A stretch of DNA of 41,741 nucleotides. It comes from a virus. Its lineage: Duplodnaviria > Heunggongvirae > Uroviricota > Caudoviricetes. The stretch is taken from IMG/VR virus record IMGVR_UViG_3300045988_117301. The stretch is one strand, 5' to 3'. Shown here in pieces: positions 1-37,221 of this stretch (within the stretch, counting starts at the first letter, position 1; every line of letters starts with the position of its first letter). The notes under the pieces are model-generated. The model saw only the letters and a program-made list of their open reading frames with translations. It had not been told where the DNA came from and did not search any database. The translations under genes were made by a program, and so were the position numbers.

Positions 1-151
1 TGCGGGAAAGCAGACGCAAGAAATAGCGGCAATGTCTGTCCGTCCAGTCGAGCATAGGAGCAATGCTAAACCGAGAACTCCCGTAAGCGCCAGTTTTCTC
101 AGGCATCGCGCTGGTTTGATTAGTTTTCTGTGTTTCAGGATTATCGTGCAT
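1..151 (-). CDS. dusA: tRNA-dihydrouridine synthase A, 5' portion (continues beyond window start); N-terminus supplied by prophage DNA
   Basis: Minus-strand frame from ATG at 151-149 (internal ATG at 106-104) reads [50 protein letters not shown] and stays open to position 1; [14 protein letters not shown] is the conserved DusA N-terminal motif. Confidence 0.7.
44..105. repeat. attL: left copy of imperfect direct repeat, 8-bp identical core TCGAGCAT at 48-55
   Basis: About 79% identity to 41683-41741 over roughly 57 bp; core tcgagcat identical at both ends. Confidence 0.7.
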
Positions 152-184
152 TTTTGAACATTTCAGGCTATTTTTCTCGCGTTA

Positions 185-219
185 GGTTCCCGCACAGGTT
201 CCCACGATTTATGGGAACC
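185..219. promoter_or_regulatory. GGTTCCC repeat cluster upstream of int (two direct copies 185-191 and 197-203, one inverted 213-219); candidate integrase arm-type sites or int promoter elements
   Basis: Exact heptamer repeats seen directly; similar GGTTCCC/GGCTCCC pair at 41626-41643 on the other att arm. Confidence 0.35.
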
Positions 220-239
220 CGAAATAACGAGGTCGTGTA

Positions 240-1337
240 ATGGCGTACTATAACATAGAGAAACGACTAAAATCCGATGGCACACCACGCTATCGCTGTA
301 ATGTGATTATCAAAGAAAAAGGTGTTATCACTTACAGGGAAAGCAAAACATTCCCTAAACATGCCCATGCCAAAACATGGGGTACACAGAAAGTGATGGA
401 ATTAGATCTATATGGCATTCCATCATCAAATGCAGTTGACGGACTTACAGTCCGTGACTTACTACACAAATATTTAAATGACCCAAATGCCGGAGGTAAA
501 GCAGGTCGTACTAAAAGATATGTGCTGGAACTGCTTATGGATAGTGACATCTCCGCGATCAAACTATCCGAACTGACAGAAAATGACGTAATTGAACATT
601 GTAGGCTAAGAAACAACGCTGGTGCAGGTCCAGCAACAGTCAGCCACGATGTTAGTTATCTTGGCAGTGTTCTGGATGCGGCCAAACCTGTATACGGAAT
701 TAATTACACATCAAACCCGGCGAAAAGTGCTCGTCCATATCTACTTAAACTTGGTTTGATTGGTAAATCAAACCGTCGTAATCGTAGACCGGCATCTGAT
801 GAACTGGACATGCTCATTGAAGGTCTTCAACAACGATCTACACATAAATGCTCAAAAATTCCGTTCGTTGATATCCTCAAATTTTCTGTGTGGTCCTGTA
901 TGCGAATCGGAGAAGTATGCCGGTTACGATGGGAAGATCTCGACCAGGAACAAAAATCTATACTCGTAAGAGACAGGAAAGATCCACGCAAAAAGGAAGG
1001 CAACCACATGAAAGTAGCCTTGCTTGGGGAAGCCTGGGATATCGTCCAACGACAGCCCCAAAAATCGGAATTCATTTTTCCATATAACAGCACTTCTGTT
1101 ACTGCGGGATTTCAGAGGGTAAGAAGCAAATTAGGTATTAAAGATCTGCGATACCATGATTTGCGTAGAGAAGGGGCAAGTCGCTTATTTGAGGCTGGTT
1201 TTAGTATTGAGGAAGTCGCCCAAGTTACAGGGCATCGTTCATTAAACGTGCTATGGCAGGTATATACCGAACTGTATCCGAAATCTTTACATAATCGTTT
1301 TGAAGAGCTCCAAAAGAGCAGAAATAAGACCTCTTGA
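240..1337 (+). CDS. int: Tyrosine recombinase/integrase (dusA-targeting phage integrase)
   Basis: 365-aa ORF with ATG at 240 and a Shine-Dalgarno GAGG upstream; C-terminal region with R..HxxR..Y-type motifs (HDLRREGASR, LYPKSL); adjacent to attL. Confidence 0.9.
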   Translation: MAYYNIEKRLKSDGTPRYRCNVIIKEKGVITYRESKTFPKHAHAKTWGTQKVMELDLYGIPSSNAVDGLTVRDLLHKYLNDPNAGGKAGRTKRYVLELLMDSDISAIKLSELTENDVIEHCRLRNNAGAGPATVSHDVSYLGSVLDAAKPVYGINYTSNPAKSARPYLLKLGLIGKSNRRNRRPASDELDMLIEGLQQRSTHKCSKIPFVDILKFSVWSCMRIGEVCRLRWEDLDQEQKSILVRDRKDPRKKEGNHMKVALLGEAWDIVQRQPQKSEFIFPYNSTSVTAGFQRVRSKLGIKDLRYHDLRREGASRLFEAGFSIEEVAQVTGHRSLNVLWQVYTELYPKSLHNRFEELQKSRNKTS

Positions 1338-1385
1338 CACTGTTTATCCATACAGTTAAAAATAACACTGTATACAAACACAGTA
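1334..1385 (+). promoter_or_regulatory. Promoter with perfect -35 TTGACA (1334-1339) overlapped by two LexA (SOS) boxes, CTGT-N8-ACAG, at 1340-1355 and 1368-1383
   Basis: cACTGTttatccatACAGtt and cACTGTatacaaacACAGta match the E. coli LexA box pattern; located immediately upstream of the dinI-like gene. Confidence 0.6.
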
Positions 1386-1398
1386 TAGAGGGACTTTT

Positions 1399-1647
1399 AT
1401 GCGTATTGAAATCTGCATAGCCAAAGAAAAAATGACTAAAATGCCAACCGGTGCTGTGGATGCGTTAAAGGAAGAATTAACCCGACGCATCAGTAAACGT
1501 TATGACGATGTAGAGGTGATCGTAAAAGCCACCAGCAACGATGGCCTTTCTGTTACGCGCACCGCCGATAAAGATTCAGCTAAAACTTTTGTTCAGGAAA
1601 CTCTGAAAGATACCTGGGAGTCTGCTGACGAGTGGTTTGTTCACTAA
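1399..1647 (+). CDS. DinI-like damage-inducible protein
   Basis: 82 aa, [11 protein letters not shown]...[11 protein letters not shown] resembles E. coli DinI (about 81 aa, C-terminal TWESADDWF); Shine-Dalgarno AGAGGGA; LexA boxes upstream. Confidence 0.8.
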
Positions 1648-1713
1648 TTAACACGTAAAATCGGTAACGGCTGGAAATCATTCAATACTCGCACTATCGA
1701 AAGTTAACCAGCC

Positions 1714-1760
1714 AGCCGCAGTATCCTATCATGACAAGTTACTGCGGCTTTTTACTTTTT
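1714..1760 (+). terminator. Rho-independent terminator after the dinI-like gene
   Basis: 10-bp stem agccgcagta/tactgcggct (1714-1723 and 1740-1749) followed by ttttacttttt. Confidence 0.55.
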
Positions 1761-24040: not shown

Positions 24041-24583
24041 CCACCCCACCGGGAGGACCCGTCAGCCTGACAGCCATGACGAACGTCTGATACAGCGCCT
24101 TGCATGAATGGCATCGGGATAATCCAGAAAGGAATAGCATCGTGCCCACAAGAATCTGTGTGAGTATCCTGTTTCTTCCACCCCCGCACAGGACTGGCGA
24201 GCATGAGGGACAAACCCGCGAACCATAAACGCGGTAAAAACCCGGTGTGCATCGTTTTTGATTATTCCCGCACACTCTCGCAGAAGGAGTTCCCCGTCGG
24301 GCTACGGTCTCTGTTAATACGGGAATACGGCGACGATACAGCGCATGATGTGTCAGGCTTGAATACCTTTATCCGTTAAAAGGGATATCAGTTAAGTTAT
24401 CCCGTGTAGGGTATAAGCCATTGTCGAGACCACTCATTGAATGGCCTCTGCAATAACCGATGTCTTTCCATCAGTCCGCCACCACAAAGAATCTTTTTTG
24501 CCATAAGGCTGGAGGTTCATCTTTCAGTGGCTGCCAGTGTTATTTCCCCACTTACTGGCTTGGGTTGTTTCGCTGTACTGCCG

Positions 24584-27172: not shown

Positions 27173-28225
27173 TTATTTCCCCACCAGCTCGTTTATCTCT
27201 TTCACTGTCTGGTTAAACCGCTCTGACTCAAGCTCAACACCTAAGGCCCGACGCCCCAGCGCCATTGCTGCTTTTATTGTGGAACCGGAGCCCATAAAAA
27301 AATCAGCAACCAGATCACCTGGTCGACTACTGGCATTGATTATTTGCCTGAGCATATCCGCCGGTTTCTCACACGGATGTTTCCCCGGGTAGAACTGAAC
27401 GGGTTTATGCATCCAGACGTCGGTATAAGGCACGGAAACTGATACGGAGAAATAGCGCCGGAGAGTTTTAAACTCATCCAGCAATTCATAATATTTGCGA
27501 TTCAGTGAATCATAAGATGCCACCAGCTGGTGGTGTGGTTGTTCCAGTTGTTTTTCCTGAAACTTCTCTGCCGCTATACGGGAAAACAGTGCCTGCAACT
27601 TCCGGTAGTCAGCCTCATTCGGCAACTGCCACTGACTGGCACCAAACCAGTGGGAAACCATATTTTTCTTACCAGTGGCTTCGGCAATCTGTTTTGCCGT
27701 TATACCCAGTTCGGCACGAGCATCCCTGAAATACGATATCAGCGGTGCCATTATGTGCTGTTTGAGTTCCCTTTCTTTTGCCGCATAGCCGTCACTTTTG
27801 CCGCGATATGGCCCCTGGTAATGTTCAGCAAACAGAACGCGCTCTGTGGCAGGAAAATATGCGCGCAGACTTTCTTTATTACACCCATTCCAACGTCCGG
27901 ACGGCTTCGCCCAGATGATATGGTTAAGCACGTTGAAACGTTCACGCATCATGATCTCAATATCAGATGCCAGGCGATGCCCACAGAACAGGTAAAGGCT
28001 TCCGGCAGGTTTCAACACCCGCCAGAACTGGGCCAGACAGTGGTCCAGCCACTTAAGGTAATCTTCGTCCCCTTTCCACTGATTGTCCCAGCCGTTGGGT
28101 TTCACCTTGAAGTAAGGCGGATCGGTAACAATCAGGTCAATGGAATCATCAGGCAGGGACTGAATAAAATGCAGGCAATCAGCGTTGATTAAATCAACAC
28201 TGTTTATTTTTACAGTATTTTTCAT
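27173..28225 (-). CDS. Orphan DNA methyltransferase, beta-class (DPPY motif; likely N6-adenine)
   Basis: 350 aa; motif [10 protein letters not shown] near N-terminus, AdoMet motif FFMGSGST near C-terminus; no adjacent restriction endonuclease. Confidence 0.85.
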
Positions 28226-31589: not shown

Positions 31590-31979
31590 TCAGGCGGCTG
31601 CACCCGCCGGTTTCTCATACTTACTGATAGTGATCTCGACCTTCCCTTTCGGGATAACCGGTCCCCACTCCACCAGCATTCTTTTCACCTGTCTGTCGTC
31701 TTCCCACACACCCGCGTGGGTCAGGGCGTCAAACAGCGCCTTGTTATAGTTGTCCAGATCGCGGATCCGGTTATCCGGAGGAAACAACACGATCTCCACT
31801 GAAGCAGGTGCCGACGTTGGTTTCGGCAGACGACGTAACTGCTCAACTATTGCTGCGCACGCCGCGCTCTGAAATTTTCGCCCCGCCTCGCTTATCAGGC
31901 TCTTACCAGCAAATGCCCCTTTGTTGGGGTGTCGCCAGTACGTGTTCACACTGGGCGGGAAAGGCAGGATCAACTTCAT
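31590..31979 (-). CDS. rusA: Holliday junction resolvase RusA
   Basis: 129 aa; LPFPPSVNTYWRH...RDLDNYNKALFDALTHAGVWEDDRQV matches the RusA family. Confidence 0.9.
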   Translation of the reverse strand: MKLILPFPPSVNTYWRHPNKGAFAGKSLISEAGRKFQSAACAAIVEQLRRLPKPTSAPASVEIVLFPPDNRIRDLDNYNKALFDALTHAGVWEDDRQVKRMLVEWGPVIPKGKVEITISKYEKPAGAAA

Positions 31980-32302
31980 ACTTTCAGGCCCCTCTCATGT
32001 AACCAGTGGGCTGCACGCAGCCTGGCGTTCTCCTCACCGGCAAGCAGTGCGCGGATGATACCGACCGCTTCGCTGTCGTCGTCCTTCACTGCGGTATGAA
32101 GCGTTATCCCCCGGGCCACGCCACGCTTTATCGTGATGACGCCTTTTTTCTCCAGTGCGCGAAGATGCTCCACCGCTGCATTCACTGAACGGTATCCCAG
32201 CATGGTTGCCACCTCCTGATTGGTTGGCGGAAAGCCACGCTCTTGCTGGTAAGAAATCAGCATATCCAGCACCTGCTGCTGGCATTGAGTTAACGTCGTC
32301 AT
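31976..32302 (-). CDS. LexA N-terminal DNA-binding-domain-like protein (no peptidase domain)
   Basis: 108 aa; QQQVLDMLISYQQERGFPPTNQEVATMLGYRSVNAAVEHLRALEKKGVI resembles the LexA winged-helix domain; ATGA overlap with upstream gene. Confidence 0.6.
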   Translation of the reverse strand: MTTLTQCQQQVLDMLISYQQERGFPPTNQEVATMLGYRSVNAAVEHLRALEKKGVITIKRGVARGITLHTAVKDDDSEAVGIIRALLAGEENARLRAAHWLHERGLKV

Positions 32303-34482: not shown

Positions 34483-35630
34483 TTGCGCCCCCTTACCTCT
34501 GAAGGGTTCAGCGACAAATTTATGAGGCAGGCCAGTGCCGAAGCATCATTAATATAGTCATACAAGCTAACAGCCAGCGGAGATTCGGCTTTTGCCAACA
34601 TAGGATAAAGCTGCTGCAGCCAGACCTGATGAATTGATGAAATGTAGGAATAGAGAACGCTGGCGTTATGTGCAACGTCGCTCAGTACAGAGGGATTTGA
34701 AAGCTGTTTCTCCATCTGGTTAAAGGCATTGATGTATGCCTCTTTGAACTGGGCAGCACGTTTACCCGTGAACCCCATAGCAAGAAACGCAAAGCCGTCG
34801 CGGGTTATTTGATAGCAAGGTAGTTTGCGGCCTGTGCAATCGGTGTAATCACTCACCGAAAAATTGCGGGCAGTGAATGATGCAGAGCATTCAAGCGTGC
34901 GGATCTTTTTCAGTACATCGTCATGACGTTTGGAGAAGAAGTTGGCAACAGCCAGGGATGAAGTAACAGCCTGACCATCAACGATGGCAATTTCAGGTTG
35001 AGTGAGGGTTGGGATCGTAGCCATGATGGCAGCCTCTTTGGTGATTTTTAATAACTCACCACCAAGGCTTTCCACGACCTTATTGGTGGTGAGACGTACA
35101 GGGGTGGAAATACCGGTCACCAAAGAACCCGGCCCAACCGAAGTTGGCCCTGCACGCCCCACCATAATTTGGGCGTAATGCTGCTCATTACACAAAAAAA
35201 CCGCAAGAGCGCGGTTGTGCGCTTTGGTGAATTCCGGGTTTCCACGCCCGGCACCCGCTTTATAAGGTGCCTGAACAGTGTAACGTCCCGGAATGGCAGA
35301 ATCAATGTGCTGGTGGTCCTTCACACTCAACAAAATCATGCCTGAATTTCCACAAAGGACTAAAGCACTCATGCGGGTAGTCTTTGCGAAGATAGATAAC
35401 GCGCTGTGTTTCTGGCTCCCAACGAATAACATGGACATAAAGCCCTCTTCCGTCACGAAACCAGCGGTTAAGTTCCTGCACAACTCGCCCCCCACAGTCA
35501 GGTAAAGTTCTCTGTGGTTACTTACAGCCAGGTGATTTGGTAATCTGCATTCATACCGTAACAACAGGTGTTCAGCGACACTGACCACCAGCTGTTGCGA
35601 CAAACGGTTATTTGCCGTTAAACTGTTCAT
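34479..35630 (-). CDS. Rha-family regulatory protein with a 200-aa in-frame N-terminal extension of unknown function
   Basis: ATG 35630 overlaps cII-like stop (ATGA); internal ATG 35027 with Shine-Dalgarno AAGAGG precedes the Rha-like part (MATIPTLTQPEIAIVDGQAVTSSLAVANFFSKRHDDVLKKIR...). Confidence 0.6.
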   Translation of the reverse strand: MNSLTANNRLSQQLVVSVAEHLLLRYECRLPNHLAVSNHRELYLTVGGELCRNLTAGFVTEEGFMSMLFVGSQKHSALSIFAKTTRMSALVLCGNSGMILLSVKDHQHIDSAIPGRYTVQAPYKAGAGRGNPEFTKAHNRALAVFLCNEQHYAQIMVGRAGPTSVGPGSLVTGISTPVRLTTNKVVESLGGELLKITKEAAIMATIPTLTQPEIAIVDGQAVTSSLAVANFFSKRHDDVLKKIRTLECSASFTARNFSVSDYTDCTGRKLPCYQITRDGFAFLAMGFTGKRAAQFKEAYINAFNQMEKQLSNPSVLSDVAHNASVLYSYISSIHQVWLQQLYPMLAKAESPLAVSLYDYINDASALACLINLSLNPSEVRGRK

Positions 35631-36528: not shown

Positions 36529-37221
36529 ATGAACATAGGAAATCGAGTCAGACAACTTCGCCAGGCGAAGAACATGAAAATCGCCGATCTCGCTGAAGCA
36601 ATAGGAGTGGATGCGGCGAATATCTCGCGCCTCGAAACAGGTAAGCAGAAACAATTCACTGAACAAGCCCTGAGTAATATTGCCAGGAGCTTAGGTGTTG
36701 ATATTGCTGATCTCTTTACCTCAGACCTCAAAAGTAATACTGTATGTAAAAACAGTATTAGTGAGGATGTTGCGCAGGTGAAGGATGTATTCCGTATTGA
36801 AATGCTGGATGTCAGTGCCAGTGCGGGAAATGGCCTTATCCAGGGCGGTGATGTCATTGATGTGATTCATGCCATTGAATACAGAACTGATAATGCTGTA
36901 TCGATGTTTGGTGGACGACCAGCAAATCACATTAAAGTTATCAACGTTCGTGGGGACAGTATGTGTCCAACCATTGAGCCAGGAGATCTCATCTTCGTTG
37001 ATATCAGTATCAATCAGTTTGATGGGGATGGTATATATGTATTTGGTTTTGATGATAAAATTTACGTCAAACGACTGCAAATGATACCTGATAAACTGCT
37101 GGTAATTTCTGATAATCAGATTTACCGCGAATGGGGAATTACCAGCGAAAACGAACACCGGTTTATGGTCTTTGGAAAGGTCTTAATCAGTCAGTCACAG
37201 ACCCTTAAGCGACACAATTAA
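36529..37221 (+). CDS. cI: CI-type repressor (HTH_XRE N-terminus, S24 LexA-like autopeptidase C-terminus)
   Basis: 230 aa; N-terminal HTH (MKIADLAEAIGVDAANISRLETGKQ), C-terminal RGDSMCPTIEPGD Ser motif and downstream VKRL Lys; candidate Ala-Gly cleavage site in SASAGNG. Confidence 0.9.
   Translation: MNIGNRVRQLRQAKNMKIADLAEAIGVDAANISRLETGKQKQFTEQALSNIARSLGVDIADLFTSDLKSNTVCKNSISEDVAQVKDVFRIEMLDVSASAGNGLIQGGDVIDVIHAIEYRTDNAVSMFGGRPANHIKVINVRGDSMCPTIEPGDLIFVDISINQFDGDGIYVFGFDDKIYVKRLQMIPDKLLVISDNQIYREWGITSENEHRFMVFGKVLISQSQTLKRHN

Follow-up and report, generated by a model that had tools for sequence, protein, structure and literature searches.

Small SOS-controlled proteins of the DinI family are encoded on mobile and island DNA, as in the case of ImpC (impCAB plasmid operon) and Salmonella MsgA. 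The msgA gene is listed with a LexA box (PMC8072944). The dinI homologues of Gifsy prophages accumulate after mitomycin C treatment in a LexA box-dependent manner (PMC3121763), and are induced 5–23-fold by nalidixic acid (PMC8072944). In chromosomal DinI of E. coli K-12, mutagenesis showed that RecA binding is mediated by hydrophobic pocket residues L13, L21, W71, W77, and F78, and by an acidic patch composed of E24, E69, and D76 (PMC9926225). DinI and λ CI bind the same elements of the RecA groove, for which DinI, UmuD, LexA, and λ-type repressors compete (PMC9926225). UmuD cleavage is inhibited when DinI is abundant, and RecA filaments are stabilized when it is stoichiometric; the physiological role of the protein, whose effect varies with concentration, has been called elusive (PMC6590174). 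A search of the literature for experiments on prophage-encoded DinI in E. coli, or on an influence of DinI on lambdoid prophage induction, returned only chromosomal dinI induction and the Gifsy and 186 precedents, and no LexA-binding, transcript, or protein data for the E. coli dinI cassette described below. An EHEC ciprofloxacin omics supplement contained no DinI entries.

Here, we analyze a dinI gene located downstream of int in a 41,741-nucleotide viral sequence (IMG/VR record IMGVR_UViG_3300045988_117301; the whole stretch is referred to as the window). It corresponds to a lambdoid prophage that resembles the inducible phages mEp460 and PhiR40_1 and is sited in the dusA gene of E. coli. 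Taken as a whole, the locus is best explained (with a probability of about 0.7) as a LexA-repressed moron coding for a DinI paralogue that raises the DinI dose of the cell and probably damps prophage induction.

Results

Organization of the cassette

The features of the region are collected in Table 1. The int gene adjoins the truncated 5′ end of dusA, and the gene order dusA–int–DinI is also found in an identical E. coli locus. As read from the sequence, the int stop codon (TGA, 1335–1337) falls within the −35 hexamer; the perfect TTGACA that the initial annotation had placed over the int stop is indeed present, as is the good Shine–Dalgarno sequence it had reported ahead of dinI. In a promoter scan, TTGACA-18-AAAAAT scored 10 matches out of 12, with four of the six in the −10 hexamer alone; an alternative −10 hexamer, TAAAAA (1357–1362), would be separated from TTGACA by a 17-nt spacer. 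The −10 hexamer is unchanged in nearly all promoter variants compared. Ungapped promoter identities are limited to PhiR12_1 and 2H10, the Stx-type variants carrying a 1-nt indel.

Table 1. Features of the int–dinI region, in window positions.
Feature	Position	Strand	Evidence and remarks
Tyrosine integrase, int	240–1337	+	ORF; Pfam Phage_integrase, E 7.5e-21
−35 hexamer, TTGACA	1334–1339	+	Sequence, promoter scan; doubles as 5′ edge of the cassette
Predicted distal LexA operator, box 1, CACTGTTTATCCATACAGTT	1338–1357	.	Exact CTGT-N8-ACAG; occupies the whole −35/−10 spacer
−10 hexamer, AAAAAT	1358–1363	+	Promoter scan; 18-nt spacer
Predicted proximal LexA operator, box 2, CACTGTATACAAACACAGTA	1366–1385	.	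Exact CTGT-N8-ACAG; over the predicted transcription start
Shine–Dalgarno sequence, GAGGG	1388–1392	+	6 nt 5′ of ATG at 1399; kept in variants
DinI-family protein, 82 aa (PGAP DinI-like family protein WP_001217553.1)	1399–1647	+	Pfam PF06183, PDB, fold
Conserved lambdoid element, start	1655–1713	+	Outside the moron; hairpin GGCTGG...CCAGCC, 1669–1674/1708–1713; folding
Intrinsic-terminator-like hairpin	1714–1760	+	10-bp stem 1714–1723/1740–1749, 16-nt loop, then UUUUACUUUUU to 1760

Predicted LexA operators at the dinI promoter

Two tandem LexA-box matches had been claimed at this promoter. Both proved to be exact in their cores, with the 16-mers CTGTTTATCCATACAG at 1340–1355 (box 1) and CTGTATACAAACACAG at 1368–1383 (box 2), and both are conserved in close copies of the cassette. 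The operators end 41 nt (box 1) and 13 nt (box 2) from the dinI ATG, and match 15 and 16 of the 20 positions of the consensus TACTGTATATATATACAGTA. The window contains five occurrences of the motif CTGT-N8-ACAG where 0.65 would be expected, a count reached in none of 100 shuffles. When the 20-mers were scored with a heterology-index (HI)-type matrix, constructed from 24 known E. coli operators rather than taken from the published table, values of 5.3 for box 1 and 4.2 for box 2 were obtained. Both are inside the range of genuine operators (0.6–13 for known E. coli operators, leave-one-out, with the same matrix). The matrix also recovered the genuine uvrA/ssb operator in the flanking chromosome (L001, 6597–6616) and recognized the K-12 dinI operator. 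Only four sites in the window score 6 or less, compared to none in 30 shuffles. The fifth CTGT-N8-ACAG site, at 35512–35527, has an HI of about 18, and was set aside as probably due to chance.

Both operators are present in all 56 close viral copies found in IMG/VR, and no variation is seen in their CTGT and ACAG cores over 20 promoter variants. The proximal operator is kept in every 82-aa clade member examined, while the distal one is degraded to CTGG (HI about 10) in Stx-phage variants or lost (BP-4795). Among chromosomal dinI orthologues, 77 of 80 have a single upstream operator, and so do 75 of 79 viral dinI genes of the Gifsy type. The center-to-center distance of the two operators, 28 bp, does not correspond to whole turns of the helix and gives no indication of cooperative LexA binding. 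The presence of two operators where chromosomal dinI has one predicts tighter repression and later derepression of the phage gene than of the host copy. Operator quality, overlap with the promoter, and conservation support the assignment of the cassette to the predicted LexA (SOS) regulon.

No terminator separates dinI from the int gene, which precedes it in the same orientation, and dinI could in principle be expressed by read-through from int, or be a silent passenger, the LexA-like sites being non-functional. We consider this highly improbable, given that two perfect sites are located within 44 nt over a promoter-like element ahead of a gene homologous to a classical SOS gene, that the operator cores are invariant in all copies, that the cassette occurs without int upstream in other phages, and that the dN/dS values of the gene are well below 1. 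Moreover, the Gifsy homologues are LexA-dependent in experiments (PMC3121763, PMC8072944).

The 82-aa protein belongs to the DinI family

The product of the gene matched Pfam profile PF06183 (DinI) with 70.9 bits against a cutoff of 24.2 (E 1e-19), residues 16–80 of 82 covering profile positions 1–63 of 63. A phmmer search of the PDB returned K-12 DinI (1GHH/7YWA, E 3.7e-13, residues 1–81), to which the phage protein is 47% identical. A single-sequence AF2 model (pLDDT 77) had the β-α-β-β-α order, and the best Foldseek matches of this model were again 1GHH and 7YWA (probability 1.0, TM 0.64–0.68). The K-12 residues that mediate RecA binding align with M15, L23, W73, W79, and F80 of the hydrophobic pocket, and with E26, D71, and E78 of the acidic patch; five of the eight contact positions are identical and three are conservative replacements (L13 to M, E69 to D, and D76 to E). 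With Pfam, PDB, fold, and RecA-contact residues in agreement, the 82-aa ORF, which had been named a DinI homolog, is by sequence a clear member of the family. The dN/dS values of 0.05–0.24 indicate that phage dinI is under purifying selection.

The 3′ end of the transcription unit

The initial annotation had the gene end in a strong terminator within 1334–1647. A real hairpin followed by a U-run exists, but it is located outside of this interval, at 1714–1760. Folding of the terminator region gave −30.1 kcal/mol (z −4.6), and the stem bases co-vary among variants, while the U-run is peculiar to the variant found in the window. A consensus terminator scan of 1100–2100 called no terminator, the hairpin being missed because its loop is too long for the scan. 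Transcription of dinI probably ends at this hairpin. The element that starts at 1655 is common to HK97 (where it is beside sib), the λ b region, and Stx phages, and in HK97 and λ it is present without dinI. An Rfam search of 1200–1900 (E ≤ 1) returned no family for the cassette or for the downstream element.

In phage 186, a DinI-like sequence is fused to the antirepressor, and in Gifsy prophages it is co-transcribed with one (PMC3121763); since the promoter logic is the same, with a LexA box just upstream, phage DinI could likewise be all or part of a LexA-controlled antirepressor, akin to 186 Tum or the Gifsy dinI-gfoA/gftA products, that would directly inactivate the phage repressor. There is very little chance of this, in our estimate. 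The 82-aa protein consists of the DinI domain only. It is 30% identical to the C-terminal half of Tum (phage DinI residues 2–74, Tum residues 70–141), but the alignment stops before the SADEWF tail of phage DinI. No further same-strand ORF is present between the dinI stop at 1647 and the terminator hairpin. The cassette is at the prophage edge, whereas the Gifsy operon is in the nin region, and the phage cI is a cleavable-type HTH+S24 repressor. We also considered the antirepressor module represented by 186 Tum, Gifsy GfoA/GftA, and N15 AntC as a class for the cassette and rejected it; neither a fusion or co-transcribed partner nor a non-cleavable repressor was found.

Mobility and spread of the cassette

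The cassette is 321 bp long (1334 to about 1654). Homology begins at the −35 hexamer, the upstream DNA being unrelated in 2H10, PhiR12, and Stx phages. The term moron is used here for an autonomous accessory unit, in the sense adopted in HK97/λ comparisons. At the level of sequence, dinI is flanked by a promoter-like site and a terminator-like hairpin; the unit has sharp edges, and is present in some related phages and absent from others. These properties support the view that the cassette is a compact, horizontally mobile accessory gene of about 320 bp, presumably monocistronic. The claim of a moron next to int is borne out, since the −35 hexamer forms the exact start of the unit, which turns up elsewhere in unrelated surroundings.

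The cassette is found in 1814 of 5426 complete E. coli genomes, at up to seven copies each, with four to five copies in O157 strains, and many Stx phages carry it, in differing contexts. It is a real but common phage accessory gene that was already annotated, not the noteworthy find it had been presented as.

Other LexA-type features of the prophage

Three further observations were made in the window. A near-perfect LexA palindrome is present inside the cI coding sequence, in the HTH/S24 linker (36738–36757). A strong LexA-type site (28198–28217) covers codons 3–9 of a late-region DNA methyltransferase gene. A 108-aa protein encoded on the minus strand (31976–32302) contains the LexA DNA-binding domain only, with the recognition helix conserved. 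When a cI-internal LexA box was sought in the K-12 prophage e14, which carries relatives of ymfL and ymfK, no site with HI ≤ 9 was found.

Operator DNA is contacted by LexA residues S39, N41, A42, and E45. Equivalents of all four are kept in the recognition helix of the 108-aa protein, which matches the whole LexA_DNA_bind domain and has no S24 domain. Among the matches listed, the LexA-like gene is found in the dinI cassette-bearing phages mEp460, cdtI, 2H10, Lys8385Vzw, and Stx2c. The dinI operators may therefore be bound in part by this protein, leading to re-repression during lytic growth or to control independent of LexA cleavage. However, E44 is replaced by V, the short C-terminal part may not support dimerization, and co-occurrence may simply reflect phage relatedness; cassette-bearing Stx1/Stx2a and BP-4795-type phages are absent among the 30 LexA-like gene records listed of 61. 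Such binding seems to us rather improbable. Equally doubtful is a private SOS regulon, in which an uncleavable LexA-domain protein would re-occupy four phage sites, the only strong LexA-type sites of the window, and the host SOS operators after induction, when the LexA of the host is gone. If true, dinI and the host SOS response would be shut off, and expression of cI and the methylase gene would be modulated, in the course of lytic growth. The LexA boxes in the cI and methylase genes, together with the LexA-domain protein, are more intriguing than the dinI cassette, which by itself matters little and confirms a routine annotation.

The cI repressor

The cI gene (36529–37221) encodes an HTH domain and a Peptidase_S24 domain (E 5.9e-19), so the S24 autopeptidase domain claimed for this repressor is there. 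The protein also has an Ala–Gly site, a GDSM serine, and a VKR lysine. Since cI is of the HTH+S24 type, and since DinI and λ CI use the same RecA groove, feedback of phage DinI on cI cleavage is plausible by analogy. Such an effect could have either sign, given the elusive role of DinI and the dependence of its effect on concentration.

Discussion

The preferred model, a LexA-repressed moron that adds to the DinI dose, can be formulated as follows. In the lysogen, host LexA dimers bound to both operators would keep the dinI promoter shut, as suggested by operator sequence, conservation, and precedent. Upon DNA damage, activated RecA filaments would stimulate LexA self-cleavage, and the dinI promoter would fire without involvement of the phage repressor. 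The 82-aa protein would then enter the groove of RecA–ssDNA via the DinI hydrophobic pocket and acidic patch, the contact residues of which are conserved, and the total DinI dose of the cell would rise. Most likely, RecA filaments would be stabilized, and the slow, late groove substrates UmuD and the S24-type cI would face competition. SOS mutagenesis and prophage induction would be damped or delayed rather than triggered; neither the direction nor the size of this effect is as certain as the rest of the model.

An effect of the opposite sign may be envisaged, in which phage DinI stabilizes filaments, prolongs the RecA* signal, and promotes, or commits the cell to, cI cleavage and induction. 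DinI that is stoichiometric with RecA stabilizes filaments and has a positive modulatory effect (PMC6590174, PMC9926225), conservation of the RecA-contact residues extends to phage DinI, and a committed switch under strong SOS would benefit the phage. Yet DinI, bound at one copy for every two RecA protomers, occupies the groove that λ CI has to enter as a monomer (PMC9926225), which predicts steric competition. In addition, deletion of the Gifsy dinI homologues left both the level and the rate of induction unchanged (PMC3121763), though that experiment is not equivalent, as Gifsy prophages use antirepressors and not cleavable repressors. Positive feedback thus appears unlikely, and damping by an increased DinI dose remains our preferred reading.

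With a third of complete E. coli genomes carrying the cassette, and O157 strains four to five copies of it, the SOS response may yield several-fold more DinI-type protein than in K-12. Through competition for the RecA groove, cassette copy number could shift the thresholds of SOS mutagenesis, Stx-phage induction, and quinolone responses. In E. coli, the evolution of quinolone resistance has been associated with a set of accessory genes that includes a prophage DinI-like gene (PMC10575684).

The closest known relatives are the DinI-like proteins of VT1-Sakai (H0001), cdtI, CP-1639, and mEp460, which are 95–100% identical to the window DinI; in the VT1-Sakai record, a putative promoter and a "putative SOS box", the counterpart of box 2, are already annotated for a 95%-identical gene. 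The dinI genes of Stx and lambdoid phages have the −35 and −10 hexamers, the Shine–Dalgarno sequence, the proximal operator, and the prophage-edge position in common with the window. They differ in the distal operator, which is degraded or lost in the Stx type whereas the window type has two strong operators, and in their neighbors, which are att sites, effector genes, or a YkgJ-like gene instead of a dusA-type integrase. K-12 DinI (b1061; PDB 1GHH, 7YWA) shares the Pfam family, fold, size, and C-terminal WESAD(D/E)WF helix with the window protein, where an insertion of two residues is seen in the first loop and another ahead of the last helix. The K-12 gene also has a LexA operator just upstream, but a single one, ending 19 nt from the ATG, compared to two, at 41 and 13 nt, in the window; it is chromosomal, while the window gene is phage-borne and variable in copy number. 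ImpC and MsgA, which are plasmid or island genes and not lambdoid morons, are likened to the window protein by description, not by sequence.

Tum of phage 186, and the split tum/dinI of PSP3 and Fels-2, share a DinI-like domain with the window protein. The 186 promoter p95 is LexA-repressed, with the operator over the −10 element, and according to the 186 record nested truncated DinI-like Tum products modulate prophage SOS induction. Unlike the window DinI, Tum (146 aa) has an N-terminal antirepressor part, and the alignment of its DinI-like half (30% identity) ends before the C-terminal Trp–Phe pocket residues; moreover, 186 is a P2-like phage whose CI is non-cleavable. In the dinI-gfoA/gftA-irsA operon of Gifsy-1, -2, and -3, a DinI homologue is likewise first behind a LexA-repressed, damage-induced promoter (PMC3121763, PMC8072944). 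Gifsy DinI is 77 aa long and 42% identical to the window DinI. Its gene has one operator and maps to the nin region, where it shares a transcript with a small antirepressor, the actual inducer, while the window cassette appears to be monocistronic; and Gifsy repressors are not cleaved, whereas the window cI is of the S24 type.

The dinI cassette and its boundaries

The window is, on its sequence, a lambdoid prophage of E. coli: the inducible phage PhiR40_1 is 98% identical to it over most of its length, and mEp460 is a close relative. In identical chromosomal copies the gene order is dusA, int, the DinI-like gene and, on the opposite strand, the tail-fibre end of the late operon. The prophage is inserted at the 5' end of dusA through a tyrosine integrase of the dusA type, whose gene is read away from attL (window 1-240; 17865-20088 of L001, a locus with flanking chromosome). 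In the circular phage, int and dinI therefore converge with the late (tail-fibre) operon at its end, an arrangement unlike that of lambda. [quoted passage not shown]

The initial annotation had described, directly downstream of int, a perfect -35 hexamer overlapping the int stop codon, two tandem LexA-box matches, a Shine-Dalgarno sequence, an 82-aa ORF and a strong terminator. All of these elements are present, and the first four lie where it had placed them; the hairpin and U-run of the terminator are also real, but are located beyond the interval that had been assigned to the gene. A promoter scan returned TTGACA-18-AAAAAT (10/12 matches). Homology between phages begins at the -35 hexamer, upstream of which the DNA of 2H10, PhiR12-type and Stx phages is entirely unlike that of the window, and ends at about 1654. 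The cassette thus delimited is about 321 bp long and comprises the promoter, two operators, the ribosome site and the ORF. Among copies with enough flank, 52/57 lie behind the same integrase and 5/57 elsewhere. No same-strand ORF was found between the dinI stop codon and the hairpin, and the unit is therefore monocistronic. The cassette reads as an autonomous promoter-operator-gene unit.

Features of the window discussed in the text
Feature	Position	Strand	Basis or remark
int	240..1337	+	ORF; Phage_integrase E 7.5e-21; stop TGA 1335-1337
-35 hexamer TTGACA	1334-1339	+	sequence; contains int stop; 5' edge of dinI homology
Box 1 (distal), predicted LexA operator	1338-1357		fills -35/-10 spacer; HI-type 5.3; CTGTTTATCCATACAG at 1340-1355
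Box 2 (proximal), predicted LexA operator	1366-1385		over predicted start site, ends 13 nt before ATG; HI-type 4.2; CTGTATACAAACACAG at 1368-1383
Ribosome site GAGGG	1388-1392	+	6 nt upstream of ATG
dinI ORF, 82 codons	1399..1647	+	ORF call; Pfam DinI
Structured element	1655-1750		~95 nt, two hairpins
Terminator-like hairpin	1714-1723/1740-1749	+	fold; 10-bp stem, 16-nt loop, then UUUUACUUUUU
DNA methyltransferase ORF	27173..28225	-	late region
LexA-type site CACTGTTTATTTTTACAGTA	28198-28217		HI-type 5.3
LexA-domain protein, 108 aa	31976..32302	-	PF01726 positions 1-65/65
'Rha family' ORF, 383 aa	34479..35630		annotated
C4 antisense RNA and isrK matches	35082-35169 and 35194-35270	-	Rfam, 83.6 and 67 bits
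CTGT-N8-ACAG match CTGTGGTTACTTACAG	35512-35527		HI-type 18.3
cI ORF	36529..37221	+	HTH + Peptidase_S24
LexA-type palindrome TACTGTATGTAAAAACAGTA	36738-36757		HI-type 2.0
YafO-family toxin gene and partner	about 41.1-41.7 kb		zur-side end

The terminator region has a folding energy of -30.1 kcal/mol (z -4.6). A consensus terminator scan missed the hairpin, because the loop limit of the scan is 8 nt. The structured element downstream of dinI is present without dinI in HK97, where it lies directly beside the sib site, in the lambda b region (24190-24256), in many Stx phages, and in further phages. It had no Rfam match, its second stem carries compensatory changes between variants, and only the window's variant has the U-run 3' of the second hairpin. 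The cassette appears to borrow this resident element as its terminator. A 'capsid protein' pseudogene fragment placed by PGAP over the same element looks spurious.

The DinI-family protein

The ORF product, already called 'DinI-like family protein' in the NCBI pipeline annotation, matches the complete Pfam DinI profile at 70.9 bits (cutoff 24.2), in agreement with the homology proposed for it initially. It is 47% identical to K-12 DinI, and matches the solved DinI structures 1GHH and 7YWA (E 3.7e-13, residues 1-81); in a single-sequence AlphaFold model (pLDDT 77), strands and helices follow the DinI order, and the same two structures were the only significant PDB matches of the model. Cryo-EM and mutagenesis of the RecA-DinI complex revealed a DinI pocket (L13, L21, W71, W77, F78) that receives RecA F203, as well as an acidic patch (E24, E69, D76) (PMC9926225). 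The aligned residues of the window protein are M15, L23, W73, W79, and F80 in the pocket, and E26, D71, and E78 in the patch. In comparisons with five alleles, four diverged and one close, dN/dS was 0.05-0.24. Thus, profile, structure and contact residues agree on every feature of DinI-family membership that can be tested in silico, and identify a bona fide family member with an intact predicted RecA-binding surface.

LexA-type operators at the dinI promoter

The window contains five CTGT-N8-ACAG matches, compared to 0.65 expected, a number reached in 0/100 shuffles; both dinI boxes are exact palindromes of this form. Sites were scored with a heterology-index-type (HI-type) matrix, in which lower values are closer to the LexA operator consensus. 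The matrix was built from 24 E. coli LexA operators, and not from the published heterology-index table; it yields the consensus TACTGTATATATATACAGTA. Leave-one-out scores of known operators ranged from 0.6 to 13, and the genuine uvrA/ssb operator was the only chromosomal match in 20 kb of flanking chromosome. Only four sites in the window, and none in 30 shuffles, scored ≤6.

Of the close IMG/VR copies with at least 100 nt upstream, 56/56 have both boxes. Among chromosomal dinI orthologues, sampled once per enterobacterial species, 77/80 have an operator, usually a single box whose end lies 19 nt from the ATG; of the Gifsy-type viral dinI genes, which are more distant, 75/79 have one box. The close copies comprise 20 promoter variants, in which neither the CTGT nor the ACAG core varies and substitutions are located in the -35 element, operator spacers and flanks. 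The distal box is degraded to CTGG in the Stx-phage promoter variant and lost in BP-4795; the proximal box is kept in all promoter variants compared. Two strong operators therefore mark this promoter type, not dinI genes generally. Coding alleles and promoter types reassort: PhiR12_1 is 77% identical to the window in the coding part and 95% in the promoter, and VT1-Sakai is 96% identical in the coding part and has the other promoter type. That the operators are non-functional is highly improbable, and was rejected on their conservation. This conservation and the homologues suggest that host LexA represses the cassette and that SOS relieves the repression. We place the probability of the identity and regulation of the cassette as read here at about 0.85-0.9.

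Other LexA-type sites and candidate regulators in the phage

A near-perfect LexA-type palindrome inside the cI ORF has the best score in the window. With its flanks it forms a 24-nt palindrome (AATACTGT...ACAGTATT) in the stretch that links the HTH domain to the S24 domain; PhiR40_1 has the site and K-12 e14 lacks it. The site could serve as a roadblock, in internal/antisense promoter control, or as a target of the phage's own LexA-like protein. Another strong site, also found in PhiR40_1, covers codons 3-9 of the methyltransferase ORF. The fifth CTGT-N8-ACAG match, near the 5' end of the 'Rha family' ORF and upstream of the isrK/C4 matches, scored poorly overall and is probably due to chance.

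The phage encodes a 108-aa protein made up of a complete LexA DNA-binding domain, without an S24 cleavage domain. It keeps residues equivalent to LexA recognition-helix S39, N41, A42, and E45, and is predicted to be an uncleavable SOS-box binder. Its gene occurs in 61 phage records, including mEp460, cdtI, SfII/SfIV/SfV, Stx2c phages, 2H10 and Lys8385Vzw, and among these records many phages also carry the dinI cassette. No functional study of the protein was found in the literature. Such a binder might partly control dinI, a reading that we consider quite unlikely.

The C4 and isrK matches, both above the Rfam gathering score, represent RNAs that regulate antirepressor or anti-Q loci of the P1/P7 and Gifsy types. 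Within the 'Rha family' ORF, they lie over the part assigned by Pfam to the 'Ash protein family'; the ORF may thus be annotated as too long, or be dual-coded. The cI and methyltransferase sites, the LexA-domain protein and isrK/C4 are more unusual than the dinI cassette.

Predicted effect on the SOS response and induction

The S24 autopeptidase domain that had been ascribed to cI was recovered, together with an Ala-Gly site, a GDSM serine and a VKR lysine; its sequence identifies this cI as cleavable-type. DinI stabilises RecA filaments at about stoichiometric levels and inhibits UmuD cleavage at higher levels (PMC6590174). Going by established DinI biochemistry, the window DinI would bind in the RecA filament groove with the same dose dependence. 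On the reading that we prefer, the cassette would raise the DinI dose late in SOS, the extra DinI may compete with UmuD and cI, both slow substrates of the groove, and mutagenesis and prophage induction would be damped or delayed. This direction of effect is tentative, at well below even odds. Filament stabilisation could instead produce positive feedback, which appears unlikely.

Relation to known systems

Elements of this kind, their annotation and their LexA logic have been recorded before, and public phage genomes already contain the exact protein: the annotation of mEp460 lists it at 100% identity, and those of phage cdtI, CP-1639 and many Stx phages list near-identical versions. The VT1-Sakai GenBank record has a 'putative promoter' and 'LexA protein, putative SOS box' ahead of H0001, a 'DNA-damage-inducible protein I' 95% identical to the window protein. 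The only detail that we did not find recorded is the presence of two strong operators in this promoter type, whereas the VT1-Sakai annotation and other dinI genes have one. The cassette (1334-1650) occurs in 1814/5426 complete E. coli genomes; a single genome can carry it at as many as 7 places, and O157 strains carry it at 4-5. A prophage DinI-like gene is among the accessory genes associated with the evolution of quinolone resistance (PMC10575684).

[quoted passage not shown] Its product accumulates after mitomycin C, and damage control is lost when the LexA-box region is replaced; deletion of these homologues left both the extent and the speed of induction unaltered (PMC3121763). Nalidixic acid increases expression of the Gifsy genes 5-23 fold (PMC8072944). 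The inducer in the Gifsy operon is a downstream small antirepressor (PMC3121763), and in coliphage 186 a DinI-like C-terminal half belongs to the antirepressor Tum, with nested truncated products that, according to the 186 record, 'modulate SOS induction'. An antirepressor role for the window's gene is nevertheless very improbable and was rejected on the anatomy of the cassette; its product is only 30% identical to the DinI-like half of Tum.
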